DNA of 62,908 nucleotides, taken from NCBI GenBank assembly GCA_903854215.1, contig CAINVT010000035.1:1-62908 (forward strand), read 5' to 3'. Made by a program: the position numbers and the translations under genes. Under the pieces are notes generated by a model, which worked only from the letters and a program-made list of their open reading frames with translations, was not told where the DNA came from and made no database searches. Source of the DNA: an uncultured bacterium (GTDB lineage Bacteria; Patescibacteriota; Minisyncoccia; Phycocordibacterales; UBA2100). The first letter of the stretch is position 1. Every line of letters starts with the position of its first letter. Below, one piece after another: positions 27,920 through 49,901 of this stretch.

Positions 27920-27993
27920 TGGGAGATCGTCTAATGGTAGGACAGGGGCCTTTGAAGCCCTTAATCATGGTTCGAGTCCATGTCTCCCAGCCA
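27920..27993 (+). tRNA. tRNA-Gln (anticodon TTG) with encoded CCA
   Basis: Hand-folded. Acceptor TGGGAGA/TCTCCCA + G + CCA. Anticodon stem GGGGC/GCCCT with loop CTTTGAA. T arm CATGG-TTCGAGT-CCATG. Confidence 0.9.
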
Positions 27994-28255
27994 GCTTATG
28001 CTAAGTCAGGTGACTGAGGTGCGTCCATATTTTTCAACGTATTTTTGCCCCTGCGGTTCGAGTCCAAGGCGCATCACGGATTTGAGACTCGAACGACTCT
28101 AGGCAGACCGAGATGCGTTCGATTTCAAGTCCGCAGCTGGGAAGTGCAGCCGAAGTCTAGTTGCAGCGAAGGGGATAAGATAAGATGTATGCAGGTTATC
28201 AACCTTTGTCCCTCTTTGTTATACTTGTGTCCCAGATACGTGCTATTATGCTTGC

Positions 28256-29302
28256 ATGGAAATACGCAAAAAGAACATTTTAAACCTGATAAAATATCAT
28301 GCCGATAAGAATGAGAACGGCTTCAAGAATGAAGCTTATGACATAGCTAGATACTTTGACTCTATTGGAGACCTAGAGTTGGCTCAATATATTATGGCCT
28401 TGTTATCAGGCACCAACACCTTTGTCCCACAGGATAATGAATACAATTTCCCATTTTTCACAAAAGTAAATTTGACGAATGAAAGCACTCTGCCGCTTCC
28501 AACCCTGATAAAAAATGACATTGTTGGCGTTATAAATTCAATCGGTCACAAAGTTGGAGTTAACAAGTTTTTGTTTGAAGGTGATCCTGGAACAGGTAAA
28601 ACTGAAACCGCAAAGCAGATTGCGCGTATTCTTGATCGTGAACTGTATGTAATAGATTTTGACGCTCTTATTGATAGCAAGCTTGGACAGACTTCCAAAA
28701 ATCTGGCCTCAGTTTTTGAAGAGTTAGGGCATTTGCCACAACCTGAGAAGGTCATAATTTTATTTGACGAAATAGATGCAATTGCTCTTGATAGAATAAA
28801 TTCAAACGATTTGCGTGAAATGGGCCGTGTGACCTCGTCAATGCTAAAGGGACTTGATGGACTCAGTGATAACGTCGTCCTCATTGCTACTACTAATCTC
28901 TTTAGACAGTTTGATAAGGCATTACTTAGGCGCTTCGACTCAATTGTGAACTTCAGTCGATACAGCAGGGACGAGTTGATTGAGGTGGCGGAGTCCATAT
29001 TAAATAACTTCCTGCCTAAGTTTAAGTTTGCCGGACGTAACATGAGGCTTTTTAGAAAGATACTCTTAACGGCGGATCACATTCCTTATCCTGGTGATCT
29101 TAAAAATCTAATTAAAACATCACTTGCATTCAGTGATCCAAACAGCGAGTACGATTATCTAAAAAAACTATATGAATCGATAGATGCAAAAAATGACACC
29201 GCAGATCTAAAGACTTTACAAAACAAGGGATTTACGGTGAGGGATATAGAGGTATTAACGGGTGTTTCCAAAAGTCAGGTCTCAAGGGAATTGAGTGCAT
29301 AA
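28256..29302 (+). CDS. ietA: AAA+ ATPase (classical AAA clade) with C-terminal HTH-like tail; IetA-like
   Basis: Walker A GDPGTGKT, Walker B IILFDEID, sensor-1 ATTN, Arg finger LLRRFD. C-terminus is GFTVRDIEVLTGVSKSQVSRELSA. Coupled to the downstream S8 protease. Confidence 0.75.
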   Translation: MEIRKKNILNLIKYHADKNENGFKNEAYDIARYFDSIGDLELAQYIMALLSGTNTFVPQDNEYNFPFFTKVNLTNESTLPLPTLIKNDIVGVINSIGHKVGVNKFLFEGDPGTGKTETAKQIARILDRELYVIDFDALIDSKLGQTSKNLASVFEELGHLPQPEKVIILFDEIDAIALDRINSNDLREMGRVTSSMLKGLDGLSDNVVLIATTNLFRQFDKALLRRFDSIVNFSRYSRDELIEVAESILNNFLPKFKFAGRNMRLFRKILLTADHIPYPGDLKNLIKTSLAFSDPNSEYDYLKKLYESIDAKNDTADLKTLQNKGFTVRDIEVLTGVSKSQVSRELSA

Positions 29303-31547
29303 AGTCATGAACGATATTCTTCAGCTAAAAGGCACTCTTCGAGAACGTGCGCATACCAACCCGCCAGGTCCTCGAAATGTGCCTAAAAATGCTGCCGCGA
29401 TTACATCAAACAAACTCAAGTCCTTAGCCGAGGAACTTCAGAGACTCGCCACGTATTGGGCAGGACAAACTCTTATTGAAGGATGTTTGATTGATGTTTA
29501 TTACATCGATGTCATAGCCAAGAGTAACAGAATACAGGGTTTCTTTTCTGACAGTGGATCTACAAATGGTTCCGTTGTTGGCGCGAGGTTTGTTAATGAG
29601 AAAAAAATAAAACATGTTATTACACACTATGTCAGAATCGATACCGTTAAGGATGCGGTCGGAAAGCTTAACGCATGCGTCAGTCTACTAGACGAAGAGT
29701 TTGGCGGAGCAATAACTTACGATTCAATTGAGAATCTGGGAGCTAGAAATATAAAGTTCGAGAAATATGGTATTGCTAAGACAACCTTCCAAAATATTAT
29801 TGTCGACTCTCACTATATAGAAGGCTTTAAAATCCCGGATAACAGTGCGAACACCAAGAGTCAGTCCATAATTACCGTATATAGAACGAGCACAAACCTG
29901 ACGGAATTGATGAAGGCTATCGGAATAAATGTTCAGCCAGGCAATGTGTTAAGTGATACCACGCTGCTGCTGTATCCAAATCAAATCACACTCTTATCAG
30001 AAAAAGCACCTTATCTGATAGCGATGGCAACTGAGGATTTGTCCAAATTAAGTCATGAAGATGTTGTTGGTAATGCCGGGAGTCCACCCAAAATAACAAT
30101 AGATTCTCCAAATGGCGAGCCAATCGTGGGCGTTATCGATACGTTATTTGATAAATCAGTTTATTTCTCCAAGTGGGTTGATTACAGAAAGATGATCAGT
30201 GAGGAAATACCCACGGACGCAGAAGACTACGATCATGGAACTGCGGTAAGCTCAATTATCGTTGATGGCCCGTCTATTAACCCGGAGCTAGACGATGGGT
30301 GCGGAAGGTTTAGGGTAAGACATTTTGGTGTTGCTGCCAAAGGGCGATACAGCGCATTCTCGATTGTGAAGGCAATAAGAGAAATTGTTACATCAAATCC
30401 AGACATAAAAGTGTGGAATTTATCTTTAGGTTCAGATAGGGAAATTAACCCTAATTTTATCTCGCCAGAGGCGGCGGCCTTGGATAAAATCCAGTACGAA
30501 AATGACGTCATTTTCGTAATAGCAGGCACAAATAAGAGTGTGGCTGAAGCTGGGGTTGAGAAAATGATTGGTTCTCCAGCCGATTCGATCAATGCTATTG
30601 TTGTTAACTCCGTAAACGGCGCAGGAACCCCAGCGTCTTACTCTAGAAAAGGATTAGTCTTGTCGTTCTTCAATAAACCAGACGTTAGTAGCTATGGTGG
30701 CGACACAGGTAACTATATTCGTGTATGCACTCCAACAGGCGAAGGGTTTCGCAGTGGCACTTCAGTCGCCGCACCGTGGGTTACTCGAAAAGTTGCATAT
30801 CTGATAGAAGTACTTGGTCTTAGTCGTGAAGTCGCAAAGGCGCTGATCGTAGATGCTGCCGCTGGATGGAACAGTGCAGGAAAAGACGAAAAAATCGCAC
30901 CCTTTGTAGGTCATGGAGTGGTTCCTAAAAGGATTGAGGATATAGTAAGGTCCGGCGACGATGAAATAAAATTCGTGGTGAGCGGAGTATCAGAGAAATG
31001 GGATACATATACGTACAATCTTCCGATTCCGACACATAAAGAAAAACATCCCTTCGTTGCAAAAGCCACACTGTGCTATTTTCCTAGTTGCTCAATCAAT
31101 CAAGGTGTCGATTATACGAACACAGAGTTAGATATATATTTTGGCCGAGTTAAAGATGATGAAATTATATCCATCAATAAGAATACCCAGAGTGTTGATG
31201 ACGGTGAGAAACATTATCTATACGAGGGGAGCGCTAGGAAATTGTATCGAAAGTGGGACAATACAAAGCACATAGAAGAACTCCTCACGGGTAGAGTTCG
31301 TCCGCGAAGTGTTTACGGGAGTGGTATGTGGGGCTTAAGCATTAAAGCAAAAGAGAGGTTGAGCAAACGTAGCGGCGGTATTAGTTTTGGCCTCGTAGTA
31401 ACTTTGAAAGAAATCAATGGGGTTAACAGGATTGATGACTTTATCCGCCAATGTGAGCTGCGTGGTTGGTTGGTGAATCGGGTCGATGTTGACAATAGGG
31501 TCGAAATTTTCAACAAAGCTCAGCAAAGTATTACATTCAGCGTGTAA
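29295..31547 (+). CDS. ietS: Cytoplasmic S8 (subtilisin-family) serine peptidase with large N- and C-terminal extensions; IetS-like
   Basis: Catalytic D (VGVIDTLFD), H (DHGTAVSSII) and S (SGTSVAAPWV). No signal peptide. GTG at 29295 overlaps the ATPase stop by 8 nt; the alternative ATG at 29307 lies 4 nt after it. Confidence 0.8.
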   Translation: MHKVMNDILQLKGTLRERAHTNPPGPRNVPKNAAAITSNKLKSLAEELQRLATYWAGQTLIEGCLIDVYYIDVIAKSNRIQGFFSDSGSTNGSVVGARFVNEKKIKHVITHYVRIDTVKDAVGKLNACVSLLDEEFGGAITYDSIENLGARNIKFEKYGIAKTTFQNIIVDSHYIEGFKIPDNSANTKSQSIITVYRTSTNLTELMKAIGINVQPGNVLSDTTLLLYPNQITLLSEKAPYLIAMATEDLSKLSHEDVVGNAGSPPKITIDSPNGEPIVGVIDTLFDKSVYFSKWVDYRKMISEEIPTDAEDYDHGTAVSSIIVDGPSINPELDDGCGRFRVRHFGVAAKGRYSAFSIVKAIREIVTSNPDIKVWNLSLGSDREINPNFISPEAAALDKIQYENDVIFVIAGTNKSVAEAGVEKMIGSPADSINAIVVNSVNGAGTPASYSRKGLVLSFFNKPDVSSYGGDTGNYIRVCTPTGEGFRSGTSVAAPWVTRKVAYLIEVLGLSREVAKALIVDAAAGWNSAGKDEKIAPFVGHGVVPKRIEDIVRSGDDEIKFVVSGVSEKWDTYTYNLPIPTHKEKHPFVAKATLCYFPSCSINQGVDYTNTELDIYFGRVKDDEIISINKNTQSVDDGEKHYLYEGSARKLYRKWDNTKHIEELLTGRVRPRSVYGSGMWGLSIKAKERLSKRSGGISFGLVVTLKEINGVNRIDDFIRQCELRGWLVNRVDVDNRVEIFNKAQQSITFSV

Positions 31548-31608: not shown

Positions 31609-32568
31609 ATGGATCCTGAACGACAAGCAGCTATTTATGGTTTTACAACTTATAAAAATTACCTGTCAGGCCTATCCCATCTGATAGATCTGCTGCATCC
31701 CAGCTATCAATCAATAACCACTTCTTTAAAAGAGATTGAAGTCCGTCCTGGCATTGATGTTAGCAAAATTCGGAAACTGTTATTTAATAGTTGGAACTCG
31801 GAAGCCCTTCTCAATCTACCAAAGTTTCTCGATGAGGACTTTATAAAATTTTCGAATCATTGGTCGCCGGTCCAAAGTTACTATGCTCAATATCTCGCGA
31901 CCAGAGCCTTAATTGTTGGGCGGGCAATGGACGCTGGAGGAACTCATGAGACAACATTAAATATTTGCGCTCACAACTTCACCGATCAAAAAATCTTCCC
32001 TGAACCTTGGAATTACATATGTGGTACGGGGCCGAGCTATAAAAATTTACCTGATGATCTAGTGGAATCAGATATCAACTCCCAGGAAAATCCCTATTTC
32101 TTTAGAAGGGAACGCGATAAATTGGTTTGTAACTATCGTCAGTTTCTTAAGACCACTAGGGAGCGGATGGTTGAAGAAAAAGCCGATGAATGGAAGTCAA
32201 GAAATCCTACCACTGCAGGCGTGCGAACACGTCTGCCGGGAGGAAAGAGGGCTGAGATTGACTCGTCGACAAGACGGGTATCTTTTCTAGATTGCTTTTA
32301 CCGATTAAGAACGCGTTCCAATTACAAAGACGTTGATATTTTTATCTTGGGTTCGAATGCTCAGGATTCTGTGAGTTACCTCAACGCTCTCTGCAACATA
32401 ACAGATAAGACTTTGTTTGTACTAGAATCTCATATAGCACGGTCAATTGGATTAGAAGATATGAAAAACTTAGTTCAACAATATAAATTGGCCACCAACA
32501 TTGATTTTGTGGCAAAGGGTACTGCGGGTATTGCAAAGAGGATTGACCTTATGTGGAAACTGAAATAG
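31609..32568 (+). CDS. Hypothetical 319-aa protein, possibly HEPN-like helical fold
   Basis: Own TAGAAT box at 31576-31581. The segments SYYAQYLATRALIVGRAMDAGGTHETTL and FYRLRTRSNYKDVD loosely resemble classic HEPN helices (QA.EKALKA...TH.L and LR..RN.A.Y). Confidence 0.55.
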   Translation: MDPERQAAIYGFTTYKNYLSGLSHLIDLLHPSYQSITTSLKEIEVRPGIDVSKIRKLLFNSWNSEALLNLPKFLDEDFIKFSNHWSPVQSYYAQYLATRALIVGRAMDAGGTHETTLNICAHNFTDQKIFPEPWNYICGTGPSYKNLPDDLVESDINSQENPYFFRRERDKLVCNYRQFLKTTRERMVEEKADEWKSRNPTTAGVRTRLPGGKRAEIDSSTRRVSFLDCFYRLRTRSNYKDVDIFILGSNAQDSVSYLNALCNITDKTLFVLESHIARSIGLEDMKNLVQQYKLATNIDFVAKGTAGIAKRIDLMWKLK

Positions 32569-32597: not shown

Positions 32598-33932
32598 CTA
32601 TTTTGCATCGAGTACGATTTTCTTGTCCTTCAGGAACAGCTTGCTTTGGAGACATCCGAGCAACTCGCGCTTCTCTATAATCGTCCCTTCCCTCAGTAAG
32701 TACTTGGTGTAATTTCGTACATCCACATCGACGGATATTTTCTCCTGTTTGTGACCCAGCACTCCCGAGCGAAATTTGTTGAATCGAGCAATCTCATCCT
32801 CAATTCGAGCTCGTATCCCGATCTCATCTAGGTCGACGGTATCCATGAGCCCGATCAATTCCTCGATCAGACTTGGCTCGTTGATGGGGGAGTTCTTGCA
32901 GTCGATATTCCTCGCCTTTGTGCAGAAGTAGTACACATGCCGATTCACACCGCCATTCGCCAGCTTCTTGAACTTCTCGTCGGCCGATATGCCAGATCCG
33001 CAATGGCCGCACCGAATGAGTTTCGTGAACGCGAATTCCTTGCTCTCGGTCTTCGGAATGAAGTTCTCATTCAGTGCCATCTGCACCTTTTCGAATAGTG
33101 CCTTGTCGATAATGGGCGTGTGCTTGCCGGTATACCACTGGCCACCCCCGACAGGGTATTCAAATTCACCGTAGTAGAAGCTGTTTCTAAGAATCAAATA
33201 CACATTCGCCAGCACGAGTGGCTTCCCGCCGTGCGTCTTGAAGTCGGTCTCTCGAAGCCATCGATATAACCTGCGCCCGCTCCATTGCTCGCTCGCAACT
33301 TTCTCGAACATCTGCTTGATAACAGGTGCGCGTTTCGGATCGATCCGACACTGACACTTCTTGTCGATATGCTTCTCATTAAGGTAACCAGTGGGCGCTT
33401 GGCCCGGTCTCCACCCCATCTCGCATCGCGCCCGTAGACCACGCTTCACATTGACTGCCTTGTTGTCGTTCTCAAGTTTTGCCTGTGATCCGAGGATCAT
33501 CAGTAAGAACTTCTCACTGGGGTTATTGGTAAATCGTTGGCCATAGGTCCGAATTTCGATGAGGAGCTTCTGGTCCATGAGGTCTACTATTGATCCCAAG
33601 TCCCCGGCATTACGTGAGAGGCGATCCGGTGCCCACGTCAGGATCCCGTTGTACTTGCCCGCACGCACCTCAGCAAGCATCTCGTTATATACGGGCCGCT
33701 GACCCACTTCCTTCGACGAATGCGACTCTCGCTTGATCTCGACCACATTCAGGCCCTCGCGCTCAGCTAGGGCCAGCATCTCCTTCACCTGCGATTCTAT
33801 CGACAAAGCCTGCCGATCCTCGGCCTCAGTCGATTTTCTTGAATAAAGGCAGTATTTGGTTGTGAGCGGTTGCGCTTGGAGTGCCTGCCTCCTAATGCCC
33901 TCCAAACCCGCTCTAATCAGTGTATTTTCCAT
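32598..33932 (-). CDS. Large serine recombinase (resolvase/invertase catalytic domain + recombinase domain + Zn ribbon)
   Basis: Catalytic-Ser context YCLYSRKSTEAEDRQALSIESQ, then DRLSRN. Recombinase domain and Zn ribbon (CGHCGSG...YYFC). 444 aa. Confidence 0.88.
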   Translation of the reverse strand: MENTLIRAGLEGIRRQALQAQPLTTKYCLYSRKSTEAEDRQALSIESQVKEMLALAEREGLNVVEIKRESHSSKEVGQRPVYNEMLAEVRAGKYNGILTWAPDRLSRNAGDLGSIVDLMDQKLLIEIRTYGQRFTNNPSEKFLLMILGSQAKLENDNKAVNVKRGLRARCEMGWRPGQAPTGYLNEKHIDKKCQCRIDPKRAPVIKQMFEKVASEQWSGRRLYRWLRETDFKTHGGKPLVLANVYLILRNSFYYGEFEYPVGGGQWYTGKHTPIIDKALFEKVQMALNENFIPKTESKEFAFTKLIRCGHCGSGISADEKFKKLANGGVNRHVYYFCTKARNIDCKNSPINEPSLIEELIGLMDTVDLDEIGIRARIEDEIARFNKFRSGVLGHKQEKISVDVDVRNYTKYLLREGTIIEKRELLGCLQSKLFLKDKKIVLDAK

Positions 33933-34045: not shown

Positions 34046-37000
34046 TTGTGGGATAATTTTTTTGTGATAAAAAACTTCAACAACAAAACCGAAAAGGCCG
34101 GTGACGAGCTCAAAAAGGACATAAGGCCCGGGAGCAGGGTCAATGTTGCTGCGGCAATTTTCTCCATATATGGCTACGAAAGCCTGAAAAATGAACTGAA
34201 GAATATTGATGGACTACGCTTTATATTCACGGACCCAACCTTCGTCGAAATGGACAAAGCAAGTCGCGAACAACGCTTATTTGAAATTCATGCCAATGAT
34301 CGCAAGAAGGCCATTAATGGCTCTGATTTTGAAATCAACCTAAAGAATGAACTGAAGGGAAGAGCGATCGCAAAGGAGTGCAGGAAGTGGATCGAAGAAA
34401 AAGTGACCATCAAAACCAACACGAGCAAACGATACATTCAGCCGCAACTTATCGTCGACAATGATACCGAAAAGATCCTCTACAACGGGATGGATGAATT
34501 CAGTAGTGCGGGATTCGGCTATGAGAGCGACAACGCAATCTTACGCAACATCATAAAGACAGATGACTATGAAATGACGAAGCAGTTTATAAAGAATTTT
34601 GATGACGTGTGGAACGACGAAGGCGCTCTCAAGGACGTCACAAAAGAAGTGACTGATTACATAGCTAATTTATACAAGGAAAATTCGCCGGAATTCATTT
34701 ACTATCTCACTTTGTACAACATTTTCGATGAGTTTCTCGAGGATATTACCGAAGACGAGCTGCCAAACGAGAGGACAGGATACCGGGATTCGCTTATCTG
34801 GAACAAAATGTATTCGTTTCAGAAAGACGCTGTGCTGGGGATCATTAATAAGCTCGAGCGATACAACGGCTGTATCCTTGCTGACAGTGTCGGGCTAGGA
34901 AAGACTTTTACTGCCCTTGGAGTAATCAAGTACTACCAAGAGAGAAACAAAAGCATCTTGGTTCTATGTCCCAAAAAACTCAGCGACAACTGGCAAACCT
35001 TTCTTGCAAATTACGAGGACAACCACCTCTATAAGGATCGTTTTAATTACGATGTGCTCTATCATACGGACCTTTCACGCGAGAAGGGGTTTTCGTCCAA
35101 CAATATAGACCTTTCGCGGGTAAACTGGGGAAATTACGATCTGGTCGTTATCGACGAGTCGCACAACTTTCGCAACAACGACCCGCACAAAGACAGAGTG
35201 ACTCGCTACCAAAGGCTACTCAACGACGTGATGCGTGCGGGCGTAAAGACAAAAGTGCTGATGCTTTCGGCGACACCAGTCAACAACAGGTTCATGGATC
35301 TTAGGAACCAGATTGCCCTTGCATACGAGGGGCATACAAACGAGATAGACGTGAAGATCGATGAGAAGAGGTCCATCGATGCCATTCTCACTAATGCCCA
35401 GAAGACGTTCAACGACTGGTCAAAGCTGTCAATTGAAGAAAGAACACCGGAGGTGCTTCTCGCACGTCTCAGTGCAAACTTTGATTTTTTCAAACTCCTC
35501 GACAGTGTGACTATCGCACGCAGCAGGAGACATATTGAGAAGTATTACGACATGAGCGAAATTGGAAAGTTTCCGAATCGCCTCAAGCCAATTACGCATC
35601 GCCCCAATATCACGAGTCTCCCTGGATTCATGGAGATGAAGGATCTGTACGAGCGCCTGGTGAGGCTAAATATGTCCGTGTATTCTCCCTTTGAGTATCT
35701 CTTGGCAGATAAACGAGATTTCTATAGCGAATTGTACGACAAAGAGATAAGTGAAAACCTTGGGCAAGTTCACCGAGAAAAAGGCATCCAGAAGCTCATG
35801 CGGGTCAACCTACTCAAGCGACTGGAAAGCTCCGTGGATTCCTTCCGTATCACACTAGGGAAGTTTGTAGCGAGTGTTGATGGGACGATACGTGCAATAG
35901 AAGAGTTTGAAAGGAATGGCGGATTAGGAGAGACCGAAGCAACTCAGATCAATGACGATGACATAGACGTCGATGACGATGAATGGGAGGAGGGTGAGTT
36001 CAGTATTGGAAACAAGGTAAAGGTCAATCTCGCTGATATGAACACCTCGGGCTGGAAAGAAGACCTGCTCGCTGACCTTCTCGTAGCAAAAGACATACTG
36101 AAAGAGATGGAACGAGTGACGCCCGAGCATGACCAAAAGCTTCAAGACCTCAAACAATTCATCAAGAATAAAATCGAGAACCCAGTAAACATAGGGAACA
36201 AGAAGGTCCTCGTCTTTACTGCGTTTGCCGATACTGCGAATTATCTCTACAAAAATCTGATTGCATACACCAAAGAAGAACTCGGACTCGAGACTGCCAA
36301 GATCACCGGTACGGGGAGCAACGAATGCACGCTCGATATCGATAAGCAGTTCAACAACCTCCTCATCCACTTCTCGCCTATCGCGAAGGAACACAGTCTC
36401 AAACATGCAGGGGAGAAGGAAATAGATGTACTTGTGGCGACCGATTGTATTTCCGAGGGACAGAATCTTCAAGACTGCGATACCCTCATCAACTACGATA
36501 TCCACTGGAATCCGGTCCGTATCATCCAGCGCTTTGGCCGCATTGATCGTATCGGGTCGAAGAATACCGATATCCAGCTCATCAACTTCTGGCCACAGCT
36601 ATCACTCGACGACTACATCAACCTCAAGAATAGAGTAGAGAGCAAGATGTTCATGGTCGATGCTACGGCGACCGGTGAGGATAACGTGCTCACCAACAAG
36701 TCCTCCGACCTCCTCTTCCGCAAGCAGCAGCTCGAGAAGCTTCAGGACGAGGTCGTCGATATCGAGGAAATGGGGTCGGGCATCTCTATCACCGATCTTG
36801 GGCTGAATGATTTCCGGATGGACTTAGTCAATTACATCAAGGAAAAAGGGAGTCTCGATGGAGTACCTAACGGCATGCACGCAGTCTGCAAGAAGAATTC
36901 AGAGCTCGGCATCGAAGAAGGGGTTATCTTCGTACTCAAGAACATCAATAACGAAGTGAATATCGACAATACCAACCAGCTCCATCCGTTTTATCTCGTA

Positions 37001-37315
37001 TATATCAAGGACAATGGCGAAGTGCTCTCCAACCATCTGAATGTAAAAAATACACTTGATATCGTCCGCTCGATATCGCGCGGGGTAAGTGAGCCGATTG
37101 CAGAGGTGTTCACTCAATTCAACAACGAGACTGATGACGGAAAGAATATGAGCAAATATTCCGAGCTTCTCGGCTCCTCAATCCAATCGATCCTCAATGT
37201 GAAGGATGCAAGTGATGTCGAGAGCCTCTTCAGCAGCGGTGGCACGACCGCACTCCGGAATACAGTAAAGGGGCTGGAGGATTTCGAACTGATCACATTT
37301 ATGGTCATTAAGTAA
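34046..37315 (+). CDS. SNF2-family helicase with an N-terminal degenerate PLD-like domain
   Basis: Motif I ILADSVGLGKT, motif II VVIDESHNFRN, motif III LMLSATPVNN. C-terminal lobe has ATDCISEGQNLQDC...HWNPVRIIQRFGRIDRIGS. N-terminal ~250 aa has a PLD-like layout (VNVAAAIFSIYGYESL) but QPQ where HxK is expected. Confidence 0.85.
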   Translation: MWDNFFVIKNFNNKTEKAGDELKKDIRPGSRVNVAAAIFSIYGYESLKNELKNIDGLRFIFTDPTFVEMDKASREQRLFEIHANDRKKAINGSDFEINLKNELKGRAIAKECRKWIEEKVTIKTNTSKRYIQPQLIVDNDTEKILYNGMDEFSSAGFGYESDNAILRNIIKTDDYEMTKQFIKNFDDVWNDEGALKDVTKEVTDYIANLYKENSPEFIYYLTLYNIFDEFLEDITEDELPNERTGYRDSLIWNKMYSFQKDAVLGIINKLERYNGCILADSVGLGKTFTALGVIKYYQERNKSILVLCPKKLSDNWQTFLANYEDNHLYKDRFNYDVLYHTDLSREKGFSSNNIDLSRVNWGNYDLVVIDESHNFRNNDPHKDRVTRYQRLLNDVMRAGVKTKVLMLSATPVNNRFMDLRNQIALAYEGHTNEIDVKIDEKRSIDAILTNAQKTFNDWSKLSIEERTPEVLLARLSANFDFFKLLDSVTIARSRRHIEKYYDMSEIGKFPNRLKPITHRPNITSLPGFMEMKDLYERLVRLNMSVYSPFEYLLADKRDFYSELYDKEISENLGQVHREKGIQKLMRVNLLKRLESSVDSFRITLGKFVASVDGTIRAIEEFERNGGLGETEATQINDDDIDVDDDEWEEGEFSIGNKVKVNLADMNTSGWKEDLLADLLVAKDILKEMERVTPEHDQKLQDLKQFIKNKIENPVNIGNKKVLVFTAFADTANYLYKNLIAYTKEELGLETAKITGTGSNECTLDIDKQFNNLLIHFSPIAKEHSLKHAGEKEIDVLVATDCISEGQNLQDCDTLINYDIHWNPVRIIQRFGRIDRIGSKNTDIQLINFWPQLSLDDYINLKNRVESKMFMVDATATGEDNVLTNKSSDLLFRKQQLEKLQDEVVDIEEMGSGISITDLGLNDFRMDLVNYIKEKGSLDGVPNGMHAVCKKNSELGIEEGVIFVLKNINNEVNIDNTNQLHPFYLVYIKDNGEVLSNHLNVKNTLDIVRSISRGVSEPIAEVFTQFNNETDDGKNMSKYSELLGSSIQSILNVKDASDVESLFSSGGTTALRNTVKGLEDFELITFMVIK

Positions 37316-37316
37316 T

Positions 37317-37955
37317 ATGGAATTCGTTTTACCTTCACAGGCATTCGTCAATCGCTTCGTCCCCAAGAGCAAGTTCTTTGAAAAAGCGATCGTCAACACC
37401 AAGCTGAAAAAAGAATTTACCGACTCGATTCAGAAGATAACCTGGCTGTACAAATTGGCGGACGAAACAATCGGCATCAAAGGAACTTCCAACGTCGAGG
37501 AGATACAAATCTTCGAGATTCAGCTCAAGGAGCAGATGATCCCGAAAAACGTGCTTCGTGTGATCGACAAGACCATCTCGTACCCGATACTCTATGTGTT
37601 TATACATGATACCCATTTCGCTTACGGAATCACCCTCAAGGGAGATAGCAGTAAAAACTACTACTTTTCGGACTGGGATAGTGACATTTCATTCAACTTT
37701 TCAGGCATTACGCTCGAAAAGGTATATCAGGGTATAATCACACAGTTCATCGATGGCGGTGAGGGCAGAGGCTCGGACTTCGACACACTGGTGGAAACTG
37801 ACAAGAAGCGAAAGCTTCTCGAGACAGAAATATCAGCAATGAAGAACAAGATTGCTAACGAAAAGCAATTTAATCGGAAGGTTGAACTCAATAAAGCATT
37901 ACAAGATAAAAAGAAGGACCTCGAATCCATCATCAAATCACACTTACCGTTATGA
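37317..37955 (+). CDS. DUF4391-like protein
   Basis: 212 aa, starts 1 nt after the SNF2 stop and overlaps mod by 4 nt. The block IQIFEIQLKEQMIPKNVLRVIDKTISYPILYVF matches my recollection of DUF4391 proteins found with SNF2 plus methylase. Confidence 0.6.
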   Translation: MEFVLPSQAFVNRFVPKSKFFEKAIVNTKLKKEFTDSIQKITWLYKLADETIGIKGTSNVEEIQIFEIQLKEQMIPKNVLRVIDKTISYPILYVFIHDTHFAYGITLKGDSSKNYYFSDWDSDISFNFSGITLEKVYQGIITQFIDGGEGRGSDFDTLVETDKKRKLLETEISAMKNKIANEKQFNRKVELNKALQDKKKDLESIIKSHLPL

Positions 37956-39805
37956 AAAAGCTCGACATGCAAACACCGGACCTCACGTCAGAGAATATCG
38001 CAAAGATTGCCGAGATCTTCCCGAATGTGATCACCGAAAAGGAGGGGAAGGATGGAGCGCTGGAGAAGGCGGTGGACTTTGACCTGCTTCGTCAGGCACT
38101 CCAAGGCGAGCTGGTGGAAGGCGACGATGAACGCTACCGCCTCGACTGGCCGGGCAAACGCGCGTCCATACTTAAAGCGAACACGCCGATCCAGAAGACA
38201 CTTCGTCCGGACCGCGAGAGCAGTGTGAATTTTGACACCACTCAGAATCTTTTTATCGAAGGAGACAATTTTGAAGTACTCAAAATGTTGCAGGAGTCTT
38301 ACCTTGGAAAGATAAAGATGATTTACATTGATCCGCCGTACAACACGGGGAAGGATTTTGTATACAAGGATAATTTTGCTCAGGGGAAAGTAGCGTATGA
38401 GGAGGAGATTGGTGTGGAAGGCGATGAAGGTGGAAAACTTTTTCGTAATACCGATACTAACGGACGTTTTCATAGTGATTGGCTATCTATGATGTTTGAG
38501 CGGCTCACTATTGCTCGCGATTTGCTGAAAGATAATGGTGTAATCTTTGTCTCTATTGACGACAACGAACAAGATAATTTGAGGAAAGTGCTCGATGAGG
38601 TATTTGGTTCTCAAAATTTCATTGCCCAATTTACTTGGCGAAGAACCGATAATCAGCCAAATATCGGTAAATTCGCAAAGGTTAAAGAATATATTATTTG
38701 TTATTGCAAATTTGAGGGCGGTTTTGAATTAAATAAAATGTCCCTAACCGAAAGGGCGAAGAAGGAGTACCGGTATGAAGATGATAAGGGCAAATTTCGT
38801 AGGTCAAATCTATATGATAAAACACGGGGAAGATATATATACGAAATAAATACTCCCAGTGGTATGACGCTCTCTGGCCCGTGGATGGTTCAGGAAATAG
38901 AATTTCAAGAACTACAAAAAGCGGGTAATATATATTGGGCAACGGGCGATGAGGAAACTCCCTATGGGAAAATATACCTGCATGAAAGTGGAGGTCAAAT
39001 ACCGAATGATTTTTTGGGTATTGAATTTGGTACGAATCAAGAGGCGGGCATTGACCTAGAATTATTGTTTAATGGAAAGAGGATATTTGATTTTCCAAAA
39101 CCAATCTCGTTAATTAAACACTTTATTAACATTGGGTCAAAAAATAGTGATATTATTTTAGATTTTTTTTCAGGCTCCGCAACGACAGCGCACGCGGTGA
39201 TGTCCCTCAATGCCGAAGATGGCGGTAACCGCAAGTTCATCATGGTGCAGATTCCTGAGGAAACACCGGCAGATAGTGAGGCTCGAAAAGCGGGGTATGA
39301 AACTATTGCAGAGATTGGCAAAGAGCGCATTCACCGAGCAGGCAATAAAATTCTTGCAGATAACAAAGAGGCACTCAAAAAGCGGGAGGCGCCGCTTGAT
39401 ATTGGATTCCGTGTGCTCAAGGCAGACTCTAGCAACATGAAGGATGTGTACTATCATCCCTCCGAGCTCACGCAGGGTTCGATTCTTGGACTTACGGATA
39501 ATATCAAGGAAGATCGTACTCCAGAAGACTTGCTCACACAGGTGATTCTCGATCTTGGGCTCGAACTTTCGCTCCCGATTGAAGAGAAGAAGATCAAAGG
39601 CAATACGGTGTATTTTGTGCAAGGCAATGCGCTCGTTGCCTGCTTCGACGATTCCATAGACTTCACCATTGTGGACGAGATTGCCAAGATCGAGCCGCTG
39701 AAGGTTGTCTTCAAGGACGCGAGTTTTAAAGATGATAAGGACCGGATAAATGTCGAAACACGTTTCAAACGGCTTTCTCCGGATACGGCAATAACCGTAC
39801 TGTAA
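37952..39805 (+). CDS. mod: Type III-like DNA methyltransferase (Mod; beta-class N6A/N4C)
   Basis: Motif IV IYIDPPYNTG lies upstream of motif I ILDFFSGSATTAHAV. FDFPKP block is typical of Type III Mod. Confidence 0.88.
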   Translation: MKKLDMQTPDLTSENIAKIAEIFPNVITEKEGKDGALEKAVDFDLLRQALQGELVEGDDERYRLDWPGKRASILKANTPIQKTLRPDRESSVNFDTTQNLFIEGDNFEVLKMLQESYLGKIKMIYIDPPYNTGKDFVYKDNFAQGKVAYEEEIGVEGDEGGKLFRNTDTNGRFHSDWLSMMFERLTIARDLLKDNGVIFVSIDDNEQDNLRKVLDEVFGSQNFIAQFTWRRTDNQPNIGKFAKVKEYIICYCKFEGGFELNKMSLTERAKKEYRYEDDKGKFRRSNLYDKTRGRYIYEINTPSGMTLSGPWMVQEIEFQELQKAGNIYWATGDEETPYGKIYLHESGGQIPNDFLGIEFGTNQEAGIDLELLFNGKRIFDFPKPISLIKHFINIGSKNSDIILDFFSGSATTAHAVMSLNAEDGGNRKFIMVQIPEETPADSEARKAGYETIAEIGKERIHRAGNKILADNKEALKKREAPLDIGFRVLKADSSNMKDVYYHPSELTQGSILGLTDNIKEDRTPEDLLTQVILDLGLELSLPIEEKKIKGNTVYFVQGNALVACFDDSIDFTIVDEIAKIEPLKVVFKDASFKDDKDRINVETRFKRLSPDTAITVL

Positions 39806-40818
39806 TGTCCATGCAAGAACATACTCCGCAATCTCAAATAGTAATCTACAGGGATCGAAATGGTACGACCAAAATCGATGTGCGTTTTGATGGCGCAACG
39901 GTATGGCTTACTCAGCAGGCTCTTGCGGAGCTCTTTCAAACGACGAAGCAAAATATAAGCCAGCATATCAAAAATATCCTGGAAGAAGGCGAATTACAAC
40001 AAGATTCAGTAGTAAAGGATTTCTTGACAACTGCTTCCGATGGCAAAAAGTACCATATAAAGTATTACAATTTAGATGTAATCATTTCTGTCGGATATCG
40101 CACAAAAAGCTCGATTGCTACTGCATTTCGCCAGTGGGCGACAGCACGCCTTGGCGAATACATTGTCAAAGGTTTTGTGGTGGATAGCGAACGGTTGAAA
40201 AATCCAGATTTGCCGTTTGACTATTTTGAAGAGCTCGAACGGACGATAGCCGATATACGCACTTCTGAGAAGCGATTCTACAGAAAGATAACTGATATTT
40301 ATGCGACAAGCGTGGATTATGAGCCGACGAGCGATGCAAGCGTCTTATTTTTTAAGACTGTTCAGAATAAAGTCCACTATGCTATCACCGGGAATACTGC
40401 GGCCGAGATAATAGTTGAGCGAATTGATGAGAAAAAGGAGAAGCTTGGTCTTACGTATACCAGAGGCGCAAAACCAACGAAAGAAGAAATTGTTGTAGCC
40501 AAGAATTATTACAATCAGGAAGAGCTGTTGGCACTGAACGCACTGGTAGAACAATATCTCGTATTTGCTACTGAGCAGGCGCGCAGGAGAGTTCCGATGA
40601 CTATGAAGGATTGGATAGACAAGCTGCATGGATTCTTGACCATCAATGACAGGGATATCTTGGCCGGTGCGGGCAAGATATCGCATGAGCTTATGGTGGA
40701 AATTGCAGAGAAGAAGTTTGAGAAGTATGCGCAGATTGAGTCAAGAAAGGATGTAGAGTTCGATGAAGTTGCTCTTAAGGCGCTTGCGAGTGCGAAGGGG
40801 AAGAAAAATAAAAAATAG
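39805..40818 (+). CDS. rhuM: RhuM-family protein inserted between mod and res
   Basis: N-terminus IVIYRDRNGTTKIDVRFDGATVWLTQQALAELFQTTKQNISQHIKNILEEGEL, then YYNLDVIISVGYRTKS, typical of the RhuM family. Confidence 0.8.
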   Translation: MSMQEHTPQSQIVIYRDRNGTTKIDVRFDGATVWLTQQALAELFQTTKQNISQHIKNILEEGELQQDSVVKDFLTTASDGKKYHIKYYNLDVIISVGYRTKSSIATAFRQWATARLGEYIVKGFVVDSERLKNPDLPFDYFEELERTIADIRTSEKRFYRKITDIYATSVDYEPTSDASVLFFKTVQNKVHYAITGNTAAEIIVERIDEKKEKLGLTYTRGAKPTKEEIVVAKNYYNQEELLALNALVEQYLVFATEQARRRVPMTMKDWIDKLHGFLTINDRDILAGAGKISHELMVEIAEKKFEKYAQIESRKDVEFDEVALKALASAKGKKNKK

Positions 40819-40819
40819 T

Positions 40820-43800
40820 ATGAAATTAAAGTTTAAGCAGCAACAGTACCAGATCGATGCCACGGATGCGATCGTACGCGTGTTTGCGGGGCAGGACAAG
40901 GGGTATCGCAAAGAAACCGTCGGGCGGCGGGTGGAGGGCAGCGGGAGCTTTTGGCAGAAGGAGGTTGCGGATGAGATTTTTTCAAACAAAAAACTTAGTA
41001 TCGATGACCGCGCGATCCTCAAGAATGTTCAGGAGCTCCAAAAAGAGCAGGGCATAACCGTAGTCAAAAAACTTGAGGGATTGAATTTTACGGTCGAAAT
41101 GGAAACAGGTACGGGCAAAACTTACGTTTACACGAGGGCGATGTTTGAATTGAATAAAGAATATGGTTGGAATAAGTTCATTATCATGGTCCCCTCAATT
41201 GCTATTCGTGAGGGAGTACACAAATCGCTCGAGATCACTGCCGAGCACTTTCAAGAAATCTATGGAAAGAAGATCCGATTCTTTATTTACGATACAAAGA
41301 ACAAGTCAAACTTGGTGAACATCAAGTCCTTTGCCAGTACGTCGAATATCGAGGTGATCGTGATGAACTACCAAGCCTTCGGACGCAAAGGCAAAGACGC
41401 GCTCAAGATGTTCCAAAAGCTCGACGAGATGCAGTCGGAGCGGCCAATCGACATCATCAAGCGCGCACGGCCGATACTCATCATCGACGAGCCGCAGCGC
41501 TTCGGAGACACCGCCGAGTCGATGCTTGCAGAGTTCACGCCGCTCTTCATCACGCGCTATTCAGCTACGCACAAAAAAGACTACAACAAGGTATATCGTC
41601 TTGACGCTATCGATGCCTACAACCAAAAGCTCGTGAAGAAGATCAAGGTGAAGGGTGTTGAGGTGAAGGGGAATATGGGTATGAACAGTTATTTGTTCTT
41701 GGACCGAATCCATGTGAGCGACAATGCCTATCCGACGGCGACTGTGCAAATGGAGCTCGAGATGAAGCAGGCGGGTGGCATTAAAAAAGTACTGAAACGG
41801 ATCAAAGAACAGGATGACCTCTTTGCGCTTTCTGGCGAAATGGCGCAATACAAAGGCTTTGTTGTGAAAGAGATCAACGCGCATACCAACACGGTCTCGT
41901 TCGTAAACGGCGTGTCGCTCTCGGTGGGGCAGGTCCTTGGTGATGTAGACGAGAATCATGTGCGCACCATTCAGATACGCGAAGCAATTGCTTCGCATCT
42001 CGAAAAAGAGCGGGAGTTATTTGCGCGAGGGATCAAGGTGCTTACGCTTTTCTTCATCGACGAAGTGGCGAAATATCGCGCCTATGACGAAAAAGGGAAT
42101 CAGGTGCGATCTGAATATGAGGAGATATTCGAGCGTGAATATGAACATGCTACGGCACAGAGGGAACTATTTGATGCCGAATACGGGGCATACCTTGAGT
42201 CATTCAAGCCCAATCAGGTCCATAATGGATATTTTTCCATAGACAAAAAGGGTCGATGGGTAGATTCAACAGAGTCACGAGGCCAAGAAGGTAGTGATGA
42301 TGTGAATGCCTACGACCTCATTATGAAAAATAAGGAACAGCTCTTGAGTTTTAAAGAGCCGACACGCTTTATTTTTTCACATTCTGCACTGCGTGAGGGA
42401 TGGGACAATCCGAACATATTTCAGATTTGTACCTTGAAGCACAGCGAGTCGACGATGAGCAAGCGTCAGGAAATAGGGCGCGGGTTACGTATTGCCGTCA
42501 ATGATGATGGTGATCGCATGGACGAGAGTGTGCTTGAGGGAGAATTCTTTGATGTGAACACGCTTACGGTCATCGCCAGCGAGTCCTATGATACGTTTGC
42601 AAAACAACTGCAAAAGGAGATTTTGGATTCTTTGTCGGAACGGCCTTCTCGAATGGGGGTCGGCGTACTCAAGGGTAGAATGCTCAAAAACAAAGACGGC
42701 GAGACGCTTACGTTTGATGAGACATCTGCGATGAAGTTGATTATCGATTTTCAGAAGAAGGAATACCTTGATGATGACTTCAAGATTACAGAAAAGCTTG
42801 CCGTAGCGATTGAAAATGACGAGGTCGAGGTCCCCGCCAATCTTTTGAAATTCAAATCAGAATTGACTGAGATGCTCGCAAAAGTACACGCGACGAGTAC
42901 ATTCAAGGCGGCCGAGGATGACAGAGCGACAAACGTGAATGAGATGCAACTGCGGCCGAATGAAAATTTCGCCAAGAAGGAATTTCAGGACTTATGGAGC
43001 AAGATCAAGGTAAAGACGGTGTACGATGTCGCCTTTGACTCGAAGGAGTTGGTAGACAAGTGTGTAAAAGCCATTGATGCGTATCTGGAGGTAAGTACAG
43101 TAACGATACGCATCACAGAGGGCGAACAGGCTCACGAATTAAGCCAAGAACAGTTGGAAAAAGGGGAATCACTCTCCAAGACGGCGAGTCAGATCGAGCG
43201 AACAGAAAGCATGTTGGGTAGTATCAAATATGACCTTATTGCAGAGATAGCAAAGGAGGCGAATATTACTCGCAAAACCACAGGAGAAATTCTGTCAAAA
43301 ATCAGCCCCGCCAAGTTTGCCCTCTTCCGAGCCAACCCCGAGCACTTTATCCGTGAGGTTGCTCGACACATCAATGAGGAAAAAGCGGCAACGCTGATCA
43401 ACAACATCACCTATCGCAAGACCGATCACGTGTACGAGGACGATATTTTTACGATCAACAATTTTCGCGGCTCTTTAAGCGAGAACGTACTTGAGGTAAA
43501 GAAGCACGTATATAAATATGTAAAAACTCAGTCGGATGTAGAGCGCAAATTTGCGAAAGATTTAGAACTTGAGGGGAGCAAGGTGCTCGTGTATGCGAAA
43601 CTCCCGAACGGCTTCAAGATACCGACACCCGTGGGGAACTACAATCCGGACTGGGCAATCGTGTTTGATGATAAAGAAGTGAAATATATTTACTTTATCG
43701 CTGAGACAAAAGGAAGCATGAGTACGCTCCAATTAAAGGGGGTCGAGAAACAGAAGATAGGCTATGCCAAAAAACACTTTGAATCTCTCGCCGAAGCAAG

Positions 43801-47612: not shown

Positions 47613-47676
47613 CATGTCAGCAAAGCAAAGATAAATATAAACAAATTACTAATGACTACTTAAAACGGCTCAATTC

Positions 47677-47716
47677 TGTCAGAAAAGTTCTATCATCGTC
47701 CCATACGGCCAGCAAG
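47677..47716 (+). repeat. Intergenic repeat copy B
   Basis: tgtcagaaaaGTTCTATCATCGTCCCATACGGCCAGCAAG. Confidence 0.75.
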
Positions 47717-48196: not shown

Positions 48197-48238
48197 ATGT
48201 TCCAACAAAGTCCAAATCTCCTCAAGGATGGCTCAACT

Positions 48239-48280
48239 CTGTTAGAAAAGTTCCAACATCGTTCCAGACCCCTAGCCAGT
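48239..48280 (+). repeat. Intergenic repeat copy C
   Basis: ctgttagaaaaGTTCCAACATCGTTCCAGACCCCTAGCCAGT. Confidence 0.75.
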
Positions 48281-49895: not shown

Positions 49896-49901
49896 TCAGC
49901 A

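Follow-up and report, generated by a model that had tools for sequence, protein, structure and literature searches.

An IetAS-family ATPase–protease gene pair beside tRNA-Gln in a Patescibacteria genome, with a conserved candidate operator

Background

Two tightly spaced genes for an AAA+ ATPase and a subtilisin-like protease follow a tRNA gene in the contig CAINVT010000035.1, assigned to the Patescibacteria. We asked whether they constitute the IetAS defence system, and what the pair may do in such a genome. The analysis covered a window of 62,908 nucleotides, the whole stretch of DNA examined here. A sequence-only reading had proposed an IetAS-like pair in a CPR-like host. Both parts of this proposal held, as the IetA and IetS profiles of PADLOC match the two products and the best named matches of the SerRS are from Kaiserbacteria/Paceibacteria (~81%). 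The assignment could have failed on a signal peptide in the protease, on separation of the two genes in related genomes, on absent profile matches or on neighbourhoods poor in defence genes. All four points were checked and none contradicted it. We therefore regard the two genes as an authentic, unremarkable example of the catalogued IetAS defence/toxin–antitoxin (TA) module.

Results

Gene boundaries and family assignment

The genes are adjacent and co-oriented with the ATPase gene first, as in the Gao-2020 IetAS defence system (IetAS in PADLOC, Gao_Iet in DefenseFinder), and their products carry intact S8 catalytic residues, Walker A and B motifs and arginine fingers.

28256–29302, forward strand: ietA, AAA+ ATPase (predicted antitoxin), 348 aa
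29307–31547, forward strand: ietS, cytoplasmic S8 serine protease (predicted toxin/effector), 746 aa

The TAA stop codon of ietA occupies 29300–29302 and the ATG of ietS follows at 29307, after a gap of 4 nt. Initially the junction had been described as either an overlap or a 4-nt spacing, with a protease of 750 aa. The spacing stands, while the overlap, which would require a GTG start at 29295 (8 nt inside ietA), was rejected because homologs begin at the conserved MNDILQLKG of the ATG product; the database protein also has 746 rather than 750 residues. A single putative promoter serves ietA and the tightly coupled ietS.

IetA matches the PADLOC profile PDLC02196 with E = 4.9e-44 over residues 6–346 of 348 (profile positions 5–368 of 374), and three more IetA models match at E ≤ 1e-20. 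IetS matches PDLC02197 with E = 2e-60 (203 bits) over residues 265–737, with the N-terminal 264 residues outside the match, and is recognized by eight IetS models. Both proteins also belong to phage protein families, IetA to phrog_3757 (E = 3.9e-78) and IetS to phrog_3964 (E = 1.8e-121).

The IetA ATPase

IetA consists of an N-terminal helical region (residues 1–95), an AAA core (~100–235), a lid and a C-terminal HTH-like tail (325–346). All the elements first noticed in this 348-aa protein, including the tail, were located.

28580–28603: Walker A motif GDPGTGKT
28673–28693, forward strand: pore-loop-1 position D-S-K-L-G-Q-T, with K-L-G at residues 142–144 and no aromatic residue
28757–28777: Walker B motif ILFDEID
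29228–29293, forward strand: HTH-like tail GFTVRDIEVLTGVSKSQVSREL

The Pfam AAA domain is matched with E = 3.4e-26. Walker A (GxPGTGKT), Walker B (ILFDEID), sensor-1 (ATTN) and RRFD are kept across 83 IetA homologs, so that the ATPase motifs, the arginine fingers among them, are all intact in this AAA+ protein. It belongs to the classical AAA clade, and its nearest relatives in the PDB are Cdc48/p97, AFG2 and NSF. The aromatic-hydrophobic-Gly pore loop 1 of classical threading unfoldases of the Cdc48/FtsH type is absent from IetA, the position having been assigned by pairwise alignment, and K-L-G is conserved there at 90% or more among the 83 homologs.

In the tail, the predicted recognition-helix region SKSQVSREL is almost invariant among homologs, and the tail has sub-threshold Pfam matches to HTH_7 (E = 0.0054) and MarR_2 (E = 0.0044). 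An exact-sequence look-up found no other contig bearing the identical IetA.

The IetS protease

29307–30110, forward strand: N-terminal domain, residues 1–268, a clade-specific alpha/beta domain
30129–30926, forward strand: S8 catalytic domain with D278, H310, N409 and S486
30927–31544, forward strand: C-terminal beta-rich domain, residues 541–746, with the motifs QGVDYTNTELD and RKWDN.KH

The sole Pfam match of IetS is Peptidase_S8 (E = 2.7e-32, residues 276–541 in the 750-aa numbering from the GTG). The subtilisin triad recognized at the outset is present as D278 (codon 30138–30140), H310 (30234–30236) and S486 (30762–30764), and these residues, together with N409 (30531–30533), are invariant in an alignment of 35 IetS homologs. 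No signal peptide or transmembrane segment was detected, in agreement with the initial description: KD19 values peak at 1.28 for the whole protein and at 0.09 within the first 50 residues. A Pfam scan likewise yielded no I9 propeptide. The protein is accordingly a subtilase of the cytoplasm whose Asp/His/Asn/Ser active site is intact, and it lacks the signal peptide and I9 propeptide by which secreted housekeeping subtilases are recognized.

The termini of the protease had been thought to match nothing, which proved incorrect for both. The C-terminal ~200 aa are part of the IetS/IteS profiles, up to residue ~737, and the N-terminal ~265 aa recur in phrog_3964 and, conserved, in homologs numbering in the hundreds. 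The AF2 model of the N-terminal domain has a pLDDT of 78.5 and a pTM of 0.75, and Foldseek searches of this fold against the PDB and BFVD returned nothing significant (best E 0.13 and 0.017, TM < 0.25). The weak matches are generic ferredoxin-like alpha/beta domains. All occurrences of the domain are N-terminal and in proteins as long as IetS, and it is the least conserved and fastest-evolving part of IetS, with a mean identity of 55%. We regard it as the best candidate for the surface on which IetA and/or the trigger acts.

The C-terminal domain is beta-rich in its AF2 model, which is of low confidence (pLDDT 56), and its two motifs are invariant. Its Foldseek matches, weak and non-significant, are all jelly-roll beta-sandwiches. 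Kexin/furin-type subtilases bear a C-terminal P-domain, and they share with IetS the order of an S8 domain and, directly after it, a conserved beta-rich one; the resemblance is no more than an analogy, and IetS differs from them in having neither signal peptide nor I9 propeptide. A P-domain-like role in supporting the catalytic domain is probable for this part of IetS.

A repeat pair at the promoter

28207–28234, forward strand: putative operator, a direct-repeat pair of (T)GTCCC(A), cores 28208–28212 and 28229–28233, 21 nt apart
28241–28249, forward strand: extended -10-like element TGcTATTAT of the predicted ietAS promoter, read from the sequence

The element TGcTATTAT aligns with the family-consensus TATAAT approximately 8 nt past the second repeat. 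A promoter proposed by a sigma-70 scan (TTATCA-18-TATACT) was dropped in favour of this family-conserved arrangement. Among 79 unique upstream regions from homologs of many phyla, 73 have the TGTCCCA pair, with a spacing of 20–21 nt, overlapping the ietA promoter. In five of the six exceptions a correctly spaced copy differs by a single mismatch, and the count with one mismatch allowed is 78 of 79. Shuffled sequences gave a mean of 0.02 of 79, no pair occurs inside ietA (0 of 83), and the pair has a single occurrence in the entire window. This candidate operator is what is new in the present analysis.

The repeats and the HTH of IetA are both nearly invariant across homologs, and this co-conservation fits a predicted HTH tail that recognizes the TGTCCCA repeats. 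Nucleic-acid sensing or autoregulation had been suggested from the tail; the idea of autoregulation gains support from the conserved operator-like repeats.

Island context and distribution of the family

27920–27993, forward strand: tRNA-Gln(UUG) (ARAGORN; Rfam tRNA, 63.7 bits), left border of the low-GC island
32598–33932, reverse strand: large serine recombinase, probable integrase (Pfam Resolvase, Recombinase and Zn_ribbon_recom; phrog_95 integrase, E = 1.7e-64)
34046–37315: HKD-SNF2 helicase, 2.5 kb downstream of the pair

The GC content falls from ~0.55 to ~0.42 at 28 kb and amounts to 41.5% in the ietAS pair compared with 51.9% in the upstream core. The position after tRNA-Gln in an AT-rich island was therefore correctly recognized from the start, as were the neighbouring serine recombinase and R-M-like operon. 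Homologs of the recombinase adjoin ietAS in two Saccharibacteria loci (L010, with 55% identity and likewise by tRNA-Gln, and L055, with 64%), and the enzyme is the probable integrase of the element that bears the pair. A search for att sites between 27.85 and 51 kb found the 3' end of tRNA-Gln nowhere repeated as a long direct copy, as expected for a recombinase of the serine type. An Rfam scan for tRNA-like fragments at ~28.05 kb recovered only the intact tRNA.

Between ietS and the SNF2 helicase lie an unrelated gene of 319 aa and the opposite-strand recombinase. The helicase leads its own operon, followed by DUF4391, a type III methyltransferase, RhuM and a Res-like endonuclease. The 319-aa gene was considered as a third component and rejected, as it is absent from 84 of 84 homologous loci; its product had no match in Pfam, PADLOC, PHROG or NCBIfam, and the 31 members of its orphan family are encoded in unrelated surroundings.

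The pairing of ietA with ietS is kept in 82 of the 84 homologous loci, and the other two are truncated by contig ends; the genes are thus together in every testable locus. The junctions range from -8 to +9 nt in all 83 pairs. The family is spread patchily across phyla in at least 578 species and counts ~7,800 homologs, with full-length IetS homologs at 50–81% identity, and homologs from CPR, Patescibacteria and Saccharibacteria are already known from public databases. Its carriers include plasmids, where the pair may stand beside ParAB, and the phage families phrog_3757 and phrog_3964. Shedu SduA, GmrSD, type III R-M, Druantia DruA and plasmid partition loci are found in homolog neighbourhoods, and the expectation of defence-related surroundings was borne out.

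Discussion

Proposed function and alternative explanations

We consider it likely that ietAS is a self-contained module of the IetAS family, acting as a type II-like toxin–antitoxin and abortive infection system on a tRNA-Gln serine-recombinase island. In relatives from pTiC58, mycoplasma and ietHAS the protease is toxic and is neutralized by active ATPase (PMC13069673; PMC8562856). IetS has been identified as the toxin and IetA as the antitoxin, ietA mutants were impossible to construct, and defence of the IetAS type needs protease activity (PMC13069673). Systems of other clades from E. coli and B. cereus protect from phages by abortive infection (PMC13069673; bioRxiv 10.1101/2022.08.27.505566), which is set off by a phage gene, yosG of SPbeta for the B. 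cereus system (bioRxiv 10.1101/2022.08.27.505566). By analogy with these experiments, active IetA would be required continuously to keep IetS harmless, and loss, titration or inhibition of IetA would free IetS to cleave cellular proteins, leading to growth arrest or death. The trigger could be a phage protein, comparable to yosG, or loss of the element, and the outcome would be an aborted infection as well as an addictive island. We further propose that the C-terminal HTH of IetA may bind the TGTCCCA direct repeats, which lie on either side of the -35 region and take up the spacer of the promoter, and that the antitoxin would thereby autorepress the operon in classical type II TA style.

The pair could also be an addiction module only, which stabilizes the tRNA-Gln island by post-segregational killing and plays no part in phage defence. 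The first report of IetAS was as a TA that stabilizes the plasmid pTiC58 (cited in PMC13069673 and PMC8562856), the pair directly adjoins the serine recombinase of the island, the trio of tRNA-Gln, recombinase and ietAS recurs in the Saccharibacteria locus L010, and a pair in C. perfringens lies on a plasmid next to ParA/ParB. However, relatives protect from phages through abortive infection (PMC13069673; bioRxiv 10.1101/2022.08.27.505566), homologs lie in defence islands in several cases, and addiction and defence are not mutually exclusive roles. We consider a purely addictive function unlikely. It is very improbable that the pair is a housekeeping machine for protein quality control, in which an AAA+ unfoldase feeds a partner protease as in FtsH, Lon or ClpXP-like systems. 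The relationship of IetA to Cdc48/p97, AFG2 and NSF and the tight coupling of the ATPase gene to a protease gene would be consistent with such a machine. Against this stand the patchy, HGT-like spread across phyla, islands, plasmids and phages, the GC content of 41.5% compared with 52% in the core, and the Lys that replaces the aromatic pore-loop residue in this IetA clade. In addition, a predicted HTH tail and promoter operator are typical of TA antitoxins, and in relatives the protease becomes toxic when the ATPase is missing, contrary to what a cooperative machine would show (PMC8562856).

The SNF2 helicase gene 2.5 kb downstream of the pair raises the possibility of a three-component system resembling ietHAS, a validated variant that requires an SNF2/DrmD-like helicase (PMC13069673). 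Here the helicase gene is separated from the pair by the unrelated 319-aa gene and the opposite-strand recombinase and heads an operon of its own, and an SNF2 homolog within 6 kb of the pair was found in 0 of 84 loci. A role of the helicase as ietH is effectively refuted by synteny, and we assign this explanation hardly any probability. A different view of the mechanism is that the mycoplasma-type clade forms a distinct IetAS subtype, in which one DNA-anchored AAA+ antitoxin couples sensing with effector activation. Having no aromatic pore loop, IetA would not thread the protease; an IetA oligomer bound to the paired TGTCCCA operators would instead hold IetS by its clade-specific N-terminal domain, and takeover by a phage, through transcription shut-off, through DNA damage or through a phage protein directed at IetA, would cause derepression and protease release together. 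Taken as a whole, this scheme appears rather improbable.

For the preferred reading, a self-contained TA and abortive infection module, the conceptual gain is small, as the family is catalogued, homologs are public and the architecture has been validated in minimal-genome mycoplasmas (PMC8562856). The practical value lies in a documented mobile TA/Abi module beside a type III-like R-M operon, in a tRNA-Gln island of a CPR genome. Three features offer testable handles on the mechanism, namely the pairing of the conserved TGTCCCA candidate operator with a near-invariant predicted HTH of the antitoxin, the fast-evolving clade-specific N-terminal domain of IetS, which has no structural relative and is a candidate regulatory or sensor surface, and the replacement of the aromatic residue by Lys in the IetA pore loop.

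Comparison with known systems

The top NCBIfam matches are IteA_antiphage (NF042959; 122.7 bits, cut-off 510) and IteS_antiphage (NF042956; 155.1 bits, cut-off 900). Both scores are far under the equivalog cut-offs, which puts the pair in a distant clade of the phage-defence-tested family rather than among the equivalogs. As a reference we used the pair from the At plasmid of A. tumefaciens, whose IetS scores 145 bits with PDLC02197 compared with 203 bits for the IetS of the window. In this pair, too, an AAA+ gene lies upstream of an overlapping or abutting gene for a cytoplasmic S8 protease of ~740 aa. Identity between the AAA cores is 41%, homology of the proteases extends through the S8 and C-terminal beta domains (25% identity over residues 262–701, E = 3e-22), and the Agrobacterium IetA likewise ends in an HTH-like tail, ITGVSRDTIRKY. 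In contrast, the N-terminus of Agrobacterium IetS has no detectable similarity to the ~265 aa found here (hhalign probability 0.3%), and triggers and regulation may therefore differ. Pore loop 1 reads K-L-G here and canonical Y-L-G (S-Y-L-G) in Agrobacterium-type IetA. Promoter repeats are present in both, as two direct TGTCCCA repeats in the window and as a 10-bp palindrome in Agrobacterium. The ietHAS system (Liu-DS4) has IetA and IetS in common with the pair, whose island also holds a gene of the SNF2 family. It differs in having the helicase within the operon (PMC13069673), which contains none in the window.

The clade is widespread and has been shown to work as a toxin–antitoxin pair in mycoplasmas, where pairs of the same size are validated TA systems (PMC8562856). 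That paper describes TA132/133 (MMCAP2_0132 AAA-ATPase and MMCAP2_0133 subtilisin-like protease; JCVISYN2_132/133), with 353 and 757 aa compared with 348 and 746 aa here, the antitoxin ATPase gene first and almost no intergenic space; in JCVI-syn2.0, loss of the antitoxin gene alone is lethal. The initial view that an IetAS pair in a small genome would be a novelty did not survive this comparison, as mycoplasmas and the JCVI minimal cell had already provided validated cases (PMC8562856). Like the pair in the window, TA132/133 is chromosomal, resides in a very small genome and carries signatures of horizontal transfer, while its host belongs to the Mycoplasmatota rather than to the Patescibacteria. 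Mollicutes homologs fall into one full-length family with the window protein and are 42–54% identical to it over the whole length including the N-terminal domain, figures that do not refer to the tested M. mycoides proteins themselves. The passages of PMC8562856 considered here mention neither operator repeats nor a domain analysis for TA132/133, and the behaviour that the paper demonstrates is that of a toxin–antitoxin pair rather than phage defence.

Identity and layout of the gene pair

The adjacent genes for an AAA+ ATPase (ietA) and an S8 serine protease (ietS), which a sequence-only reading had compared to the anti-phage pair IetAS, are a bona fide member of the IetAS family, of the mycoplasma TA132/133-type clade. 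Both ORFs and every motif quoted in that reading are present where it placed them, and the profiles it named match both proteins. The best PADLOC models are PDLC02196 for IetA (E=4.9e-44, residues 6–346) and PDLC02197 for IetS (E=2e-60, residues 265–737), full-length PHROGs families match both (phrog_3757, E=3.9e-78, for the ATPase; phrog_3964, E=1.8e-121, residues 34–734, for the protease), and Pfam places AAA at 106–234 of IetA and Peptidase_S8 at 276–541 of IetS (numbering of the 750-aa GTG-start reading), with no other Pfam domain found in the pair. The top NCBIfam matches are IteA_antiphage and IteS_antiphage, with scores far under the strict equivalog cut-offs, which makes the pair a distant member clade of the IetAS family. 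PDB sequence searches returned Cdc48/p97, AFG2 and NSF as the closest solved relatives of IetA and no solved IetS-like structure, the sole match of IetS being subtilisin BPN' (E=2.7e-4).

Features of the gene pair and its upstream region
27920–27993, tRNA-Gln (ARAGORN, Rfam)
28208–28212 and 28229–28233, candidate operator repeat cores upstream of ietA
28241–28249, -10-like TGcTATTAT, followed by the ietA ATG at 28256
28256–29302, + strand, ietA, 348-aa ORF in the ORF list
29307–31547, + strand, ietS, 746 aa from ATG, long ORF in the ORF list

The junction of the two genes reads GAA TTG AGT GCA TAA AGTC ATG, with the ietA stop at 29300–29302. Both arrangements allowed by the earlier reading exist: a GTG at 29295 would give an 8-nt overlap with ietA, and a 4-nt gap precedes the ATG at 29307. 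Because M1-N2 is invariant at the start of IetS homologs (MNDILQLKG) and the window's protease is listed with 746 aa in the database, the comparison places the true start at ATG 29307, not GTG 29295, and shortens the 750-aa protein proposed earlier to 746 aa. No hydrophobic N-terminus or transmembrane segment was found along the protease, in line with the claimed lack of a signal peptide, and as judged from its sequence IetS is cytoplasmic with an intact active site. The catalytic motifs of IetA are likewise intact, and since 83 homologs keep Walker A, Walker B, sensor-1 and the RRFD arginine fingers, an active oligomeric ATPase is expected.

Distribution and gene neighborhoods

IetS homologs number in the thousands; among species-representative genomes, at least 578 loci were counted, spread over very diverse phyla. 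The best 120 homologs are full-length with 56–81% identity, and their named carriers include Patescibacteria, Shapirobacteria, Magasanikbacteria, Saccharibacteria, Janthinobacterium, Acidithrix and C. perfringens plasmids. The co-conservation anticipated by the sequence-only reading is nearly complete: a full-length IetA homolog (56–87% identity) lies immediately upstream of ietS in 82 of 84 loci, the remaining two being interrupted by contig ends, and the spacing from ietA stop to ietS start is -8 to +9 nt in 83 of 83 pairs, most commonly 4 nt. The defense-type neighborhoods it expected elsewhere were also found, with Shedu SduA, GmrSD, DUF2130, a methylase and Druantia DruA among the neighbors and type III methylases nearby in Mesomycoplasma; a plasmid homolog is accompanied by ParA/ParB. 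Among companions from the window's island, only occasional RhuM and serine-recombinase homologs recur in the 84 loci. A 103-aa ORF follows ietS on the same strand in two hosts that are distant from each other, a Patescibacteria MAG (10853–11164 of locus L001) and Acidithrix (8075–8386 of locus L002); the two ORFs, comparable in length and position, have no Pfam match, and no counterpart follows ietS in the window.

The genomic island

The pair lies beside tRNA-Gln in the AT-rich island described earlier, where GC content, ~0.55 before 28 kb, is ~0.42 beyond it, with low values as far as ~49 kb; the pair itself has 41.5% GC vs 51.9% in the upstream core. The flanks are ordinary core genes (ATP synthase, NrdD, TopA, SerRS, RelA), and the proposed CPR host is confirmed by SerRS, whose best named relatives (~81% identity) are Candidatus Kaiserbacteria, Parcubacteria group and Paceibacterota.

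A second defense module of the island is the five-gene R-M-like operon at 34046–43858 (+), comprising an HKD(PLD)+SNF2 helicase (PADLOC C3a139, E=4e-133), DUF4391, a type III methyltransferase (E=2e-221), RhuM/PDC-S05 (E=8e-128) and a ResIII helicase of 1031 aa whose C-terminal domain is RE_endonuc. The 319-aa protein downstream of ietS (31609–32568, +) has no match in Pfam, PADLOC, PHROGs or NCBIfam. Its small orphan family comprises 31 proteins, one in Parcubacteria, encoded by single genes in unrelated contexts, once within a type I R-M operon next to ClpP; considered as an IetAS partner, it showed no link, with 0 of 84 loci containing it.

An IS200-like Y1 transposase gene lies at 44603–45271 (+) within the low-GC island (Pfam Y1_Tnp, E=4.9e-15), and toward the right end are genes for a TPR protein (46542–47198) and a TehB-like methyltransferase (48348–48947, -). 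Near the right edge is a family of ~50-nt direct repeats (47667–47716, 48230–48279 and 49891–49940; the later two are 80% and 60% identical to the first); shorter relatives occur at 49549 and 49600, and this family might mark the island boundary. Just 3' of tRNA-Gln, 28040–28140 holds the T-arm-like strings GGTTCGAGTCCA (~28056) and GTTCGATTTCAAGTCC (~28119), by appearance tRNA 3'-end remnants and possibly old integration scars; for this segment ARAGORN and Rfam report no second tRNA, only the intact tRNA-Gln.

In a Ca. Saccharibacteria MAG (locus L010, CAZKAF010000001.1, 2488–8241), tRNA-Gln(CTG), a 271-aa ORF, a serine recombinase and ietAS are clustered in a different gene order, with the recombinase 55% and IetA 87% identical to those of the window. 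This suggests that a family of tRNA-Gln-associated serine-recombinase elements carries ietAS in CPR bacteria.

Terminal domains of the protease

The sequence-only reading regarded both protease termini as orphans. This stands for the structure of the N-domain (residues 1–268), whose predicted model, a confident one (pLDDT 78.5, pTM 0.75), has no significant neighbor in PDB (best E=0.13, TM<0.25) or BFVD. It does not stand for the sequences: the N-domain profile finds 502 cluster representatives among 1.84 billion proteins, and the C-domain (541–746) is common to Agrobacterium IetS. The best 150 of the 502 matches are all ~730–770-aa IetS-type proteins, with the domain from residue 1, or short fragments, and therefore the N-domain, as far as these matches indicate, belongs to the window's IetS clade only, rather than being a shuffled module. 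Of the parts of IetS it is also the least conserved (mean identity 55%; S8 74%, C-domain 72%). The C-domain contains the invariant motifs QGVDYTNTELD and RKWDN.KH; modeled alone it is beta-rich with low confidence (pLDDT 56), and Foldseek gave weak jelly-roll resemblances only (best E=0.006, TM~0.3). Kexin-type subtilases have a P-domain, to which the C-domain may be likened as an analogy, not a finding.

Candidate operator and the ATPase tail

The 150–200 nt 5' of ietA cannot be aligned across phyla except for a direct repeat, (T)GTCCC(A), present in two copies. In 73 of 79 unique upstream regions the distance between the copies is exactly 20 or 21 nt, compared with a mean of 0.02 of 79 in composition-preserving shuffles and 0 of 83 in a 200-nt segment inside ietA, and five of the six exceptions keep the correct spacing with a copy that has one mismatch (GTCCA, GTCCT or GTCTC). 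In the family promoter consensus, tGTCCCAA-n4-TTGAC-n-TTTGTCCCAA-n~8-TATAAT, repeat 1 adjoins the -35 element and repeat 2 occupies the spacer immediately 5' of the -10. The paired motif has no second copy elsewhere in the 62.9-kb window.

The last 22 residues of IetA are highly conserved, with a near-invariant helix SKSQVSREL, and alone give sub-threshold Pfam matches to HTH_7 (E=0.0054) and MarR_2 (E=0.0044); the Agrobacterium IetA terminus (ITGVSRDTIRKY) resembles them. Because this tail is the sole DNA-binding candidate in the cassette and is as invariant as the repeats, we infer that IetA may repress its own operon through the predicted HTH and the repeats, like type II TA systems.

Possible mechanism and alternatives

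Judged from the DNA, the genes are tightly coupled behind one promoter on a mobile island. By analogy with relatives, in which alone these steps have been shown, free IetS would be toxic to the cell, active IetA would neutralize it, and a phage trigger would lead to abortive infection. The predicted HTH on the candidate operator would provide autorepression, the IetS N-domain could be a regulatory or sensor surface, and the C-domain could give structural support.

It is plausible, and compatible with a defense role, that the pair serves purely as an addiction module for the island, as the serine recombinase is adjacent to it and the Saccharibacteria locus has the same trio of tRNA-Gln, homologous recombinase and ietAS. 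A housekeeping AAA+-protease machine is disfavored: the distribution is mobile and patchy, the GC content is foreign, relatives show toxin behavior, and the candidate operator is TA-like. Synteny excludes a three-gene ietHAS-type system, with an SNF2 helicase within 6 kb of the pair in 0 of 84 loci.

Comparison with known systems

IetAS was first reported as a plasmid-stability toxin-antitoxin in which the protease is the toxin and the ATPase the antitoxin (PMC13069673). IetAS protects against phage and this defense needs protease activity; ietA mutants were not constructible, and the mechanism "remains unknown" (PMC13069673). For a B. cereus IetAS, the trigger is the SPbeta gene yosG and the mode of action is abortive infection (bioRxiv 10.1101/2022.08.27.505566). 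In Mycoplasma mycoides, according to PMC8562856, a 353-aa AAA-ATPase and a 757-aa subtilisin-like protease form a validated TA, the M. bovis and M. gallisepticum homologs are functional, and loss of the antitoxin gene alone is lethal in JCVI-syn2.0. Mollicutes genomes also hold full-length members of the window's IetS family, so a small-genome host of IetAS is not new; the earlier assignment to IetAS is supported and its novelty was overrated. The candidate operator, the N-domain and the pore loop are modest, testable additions to what is known of the system.

Against annotated plasmids, IetS proteins fall into two tiers, an upper one of full-length relatives with 42–57% identity and a lower one of Agrobacterium, Rhizobium and Enterococcus-type proteins that align only over ~262–716 with 23–27% identity. 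An A. tumefaciens At-plasmid pair, compared directly, has the same layout, with overlapping genes for an ATPase of 381 aa and an S8 peptidase of 739 aa, and is 41% identical to the window's pair in the AAA cores and 25% in the S8 and C-terminal domains (E=3e-22), whereas the N-domains show no similarity (hhalign probability 0.3%). The PADLOC IetS model scores the window's protein higher (203 bits) than that of Agrobacterium (145 bits). At pore-loop-1, IetA has S-K-L-G, and the alignment puts its Lys opposite the canonical aromatic residue of Agrobacterium S-Y-L-G. The ietA promoter of A. tumefaciens pAtG3_79a (1540–1580 of locus L085) contains a perfect 10-bp inverted repeat, AAATAACTAT-n19-ATAGTTATTT. 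The candidate operators thus differ, being TGTCCCA direct repeats in the window's clade and a 10-bp palindrome in the one Agrobacterium-type locus examined.
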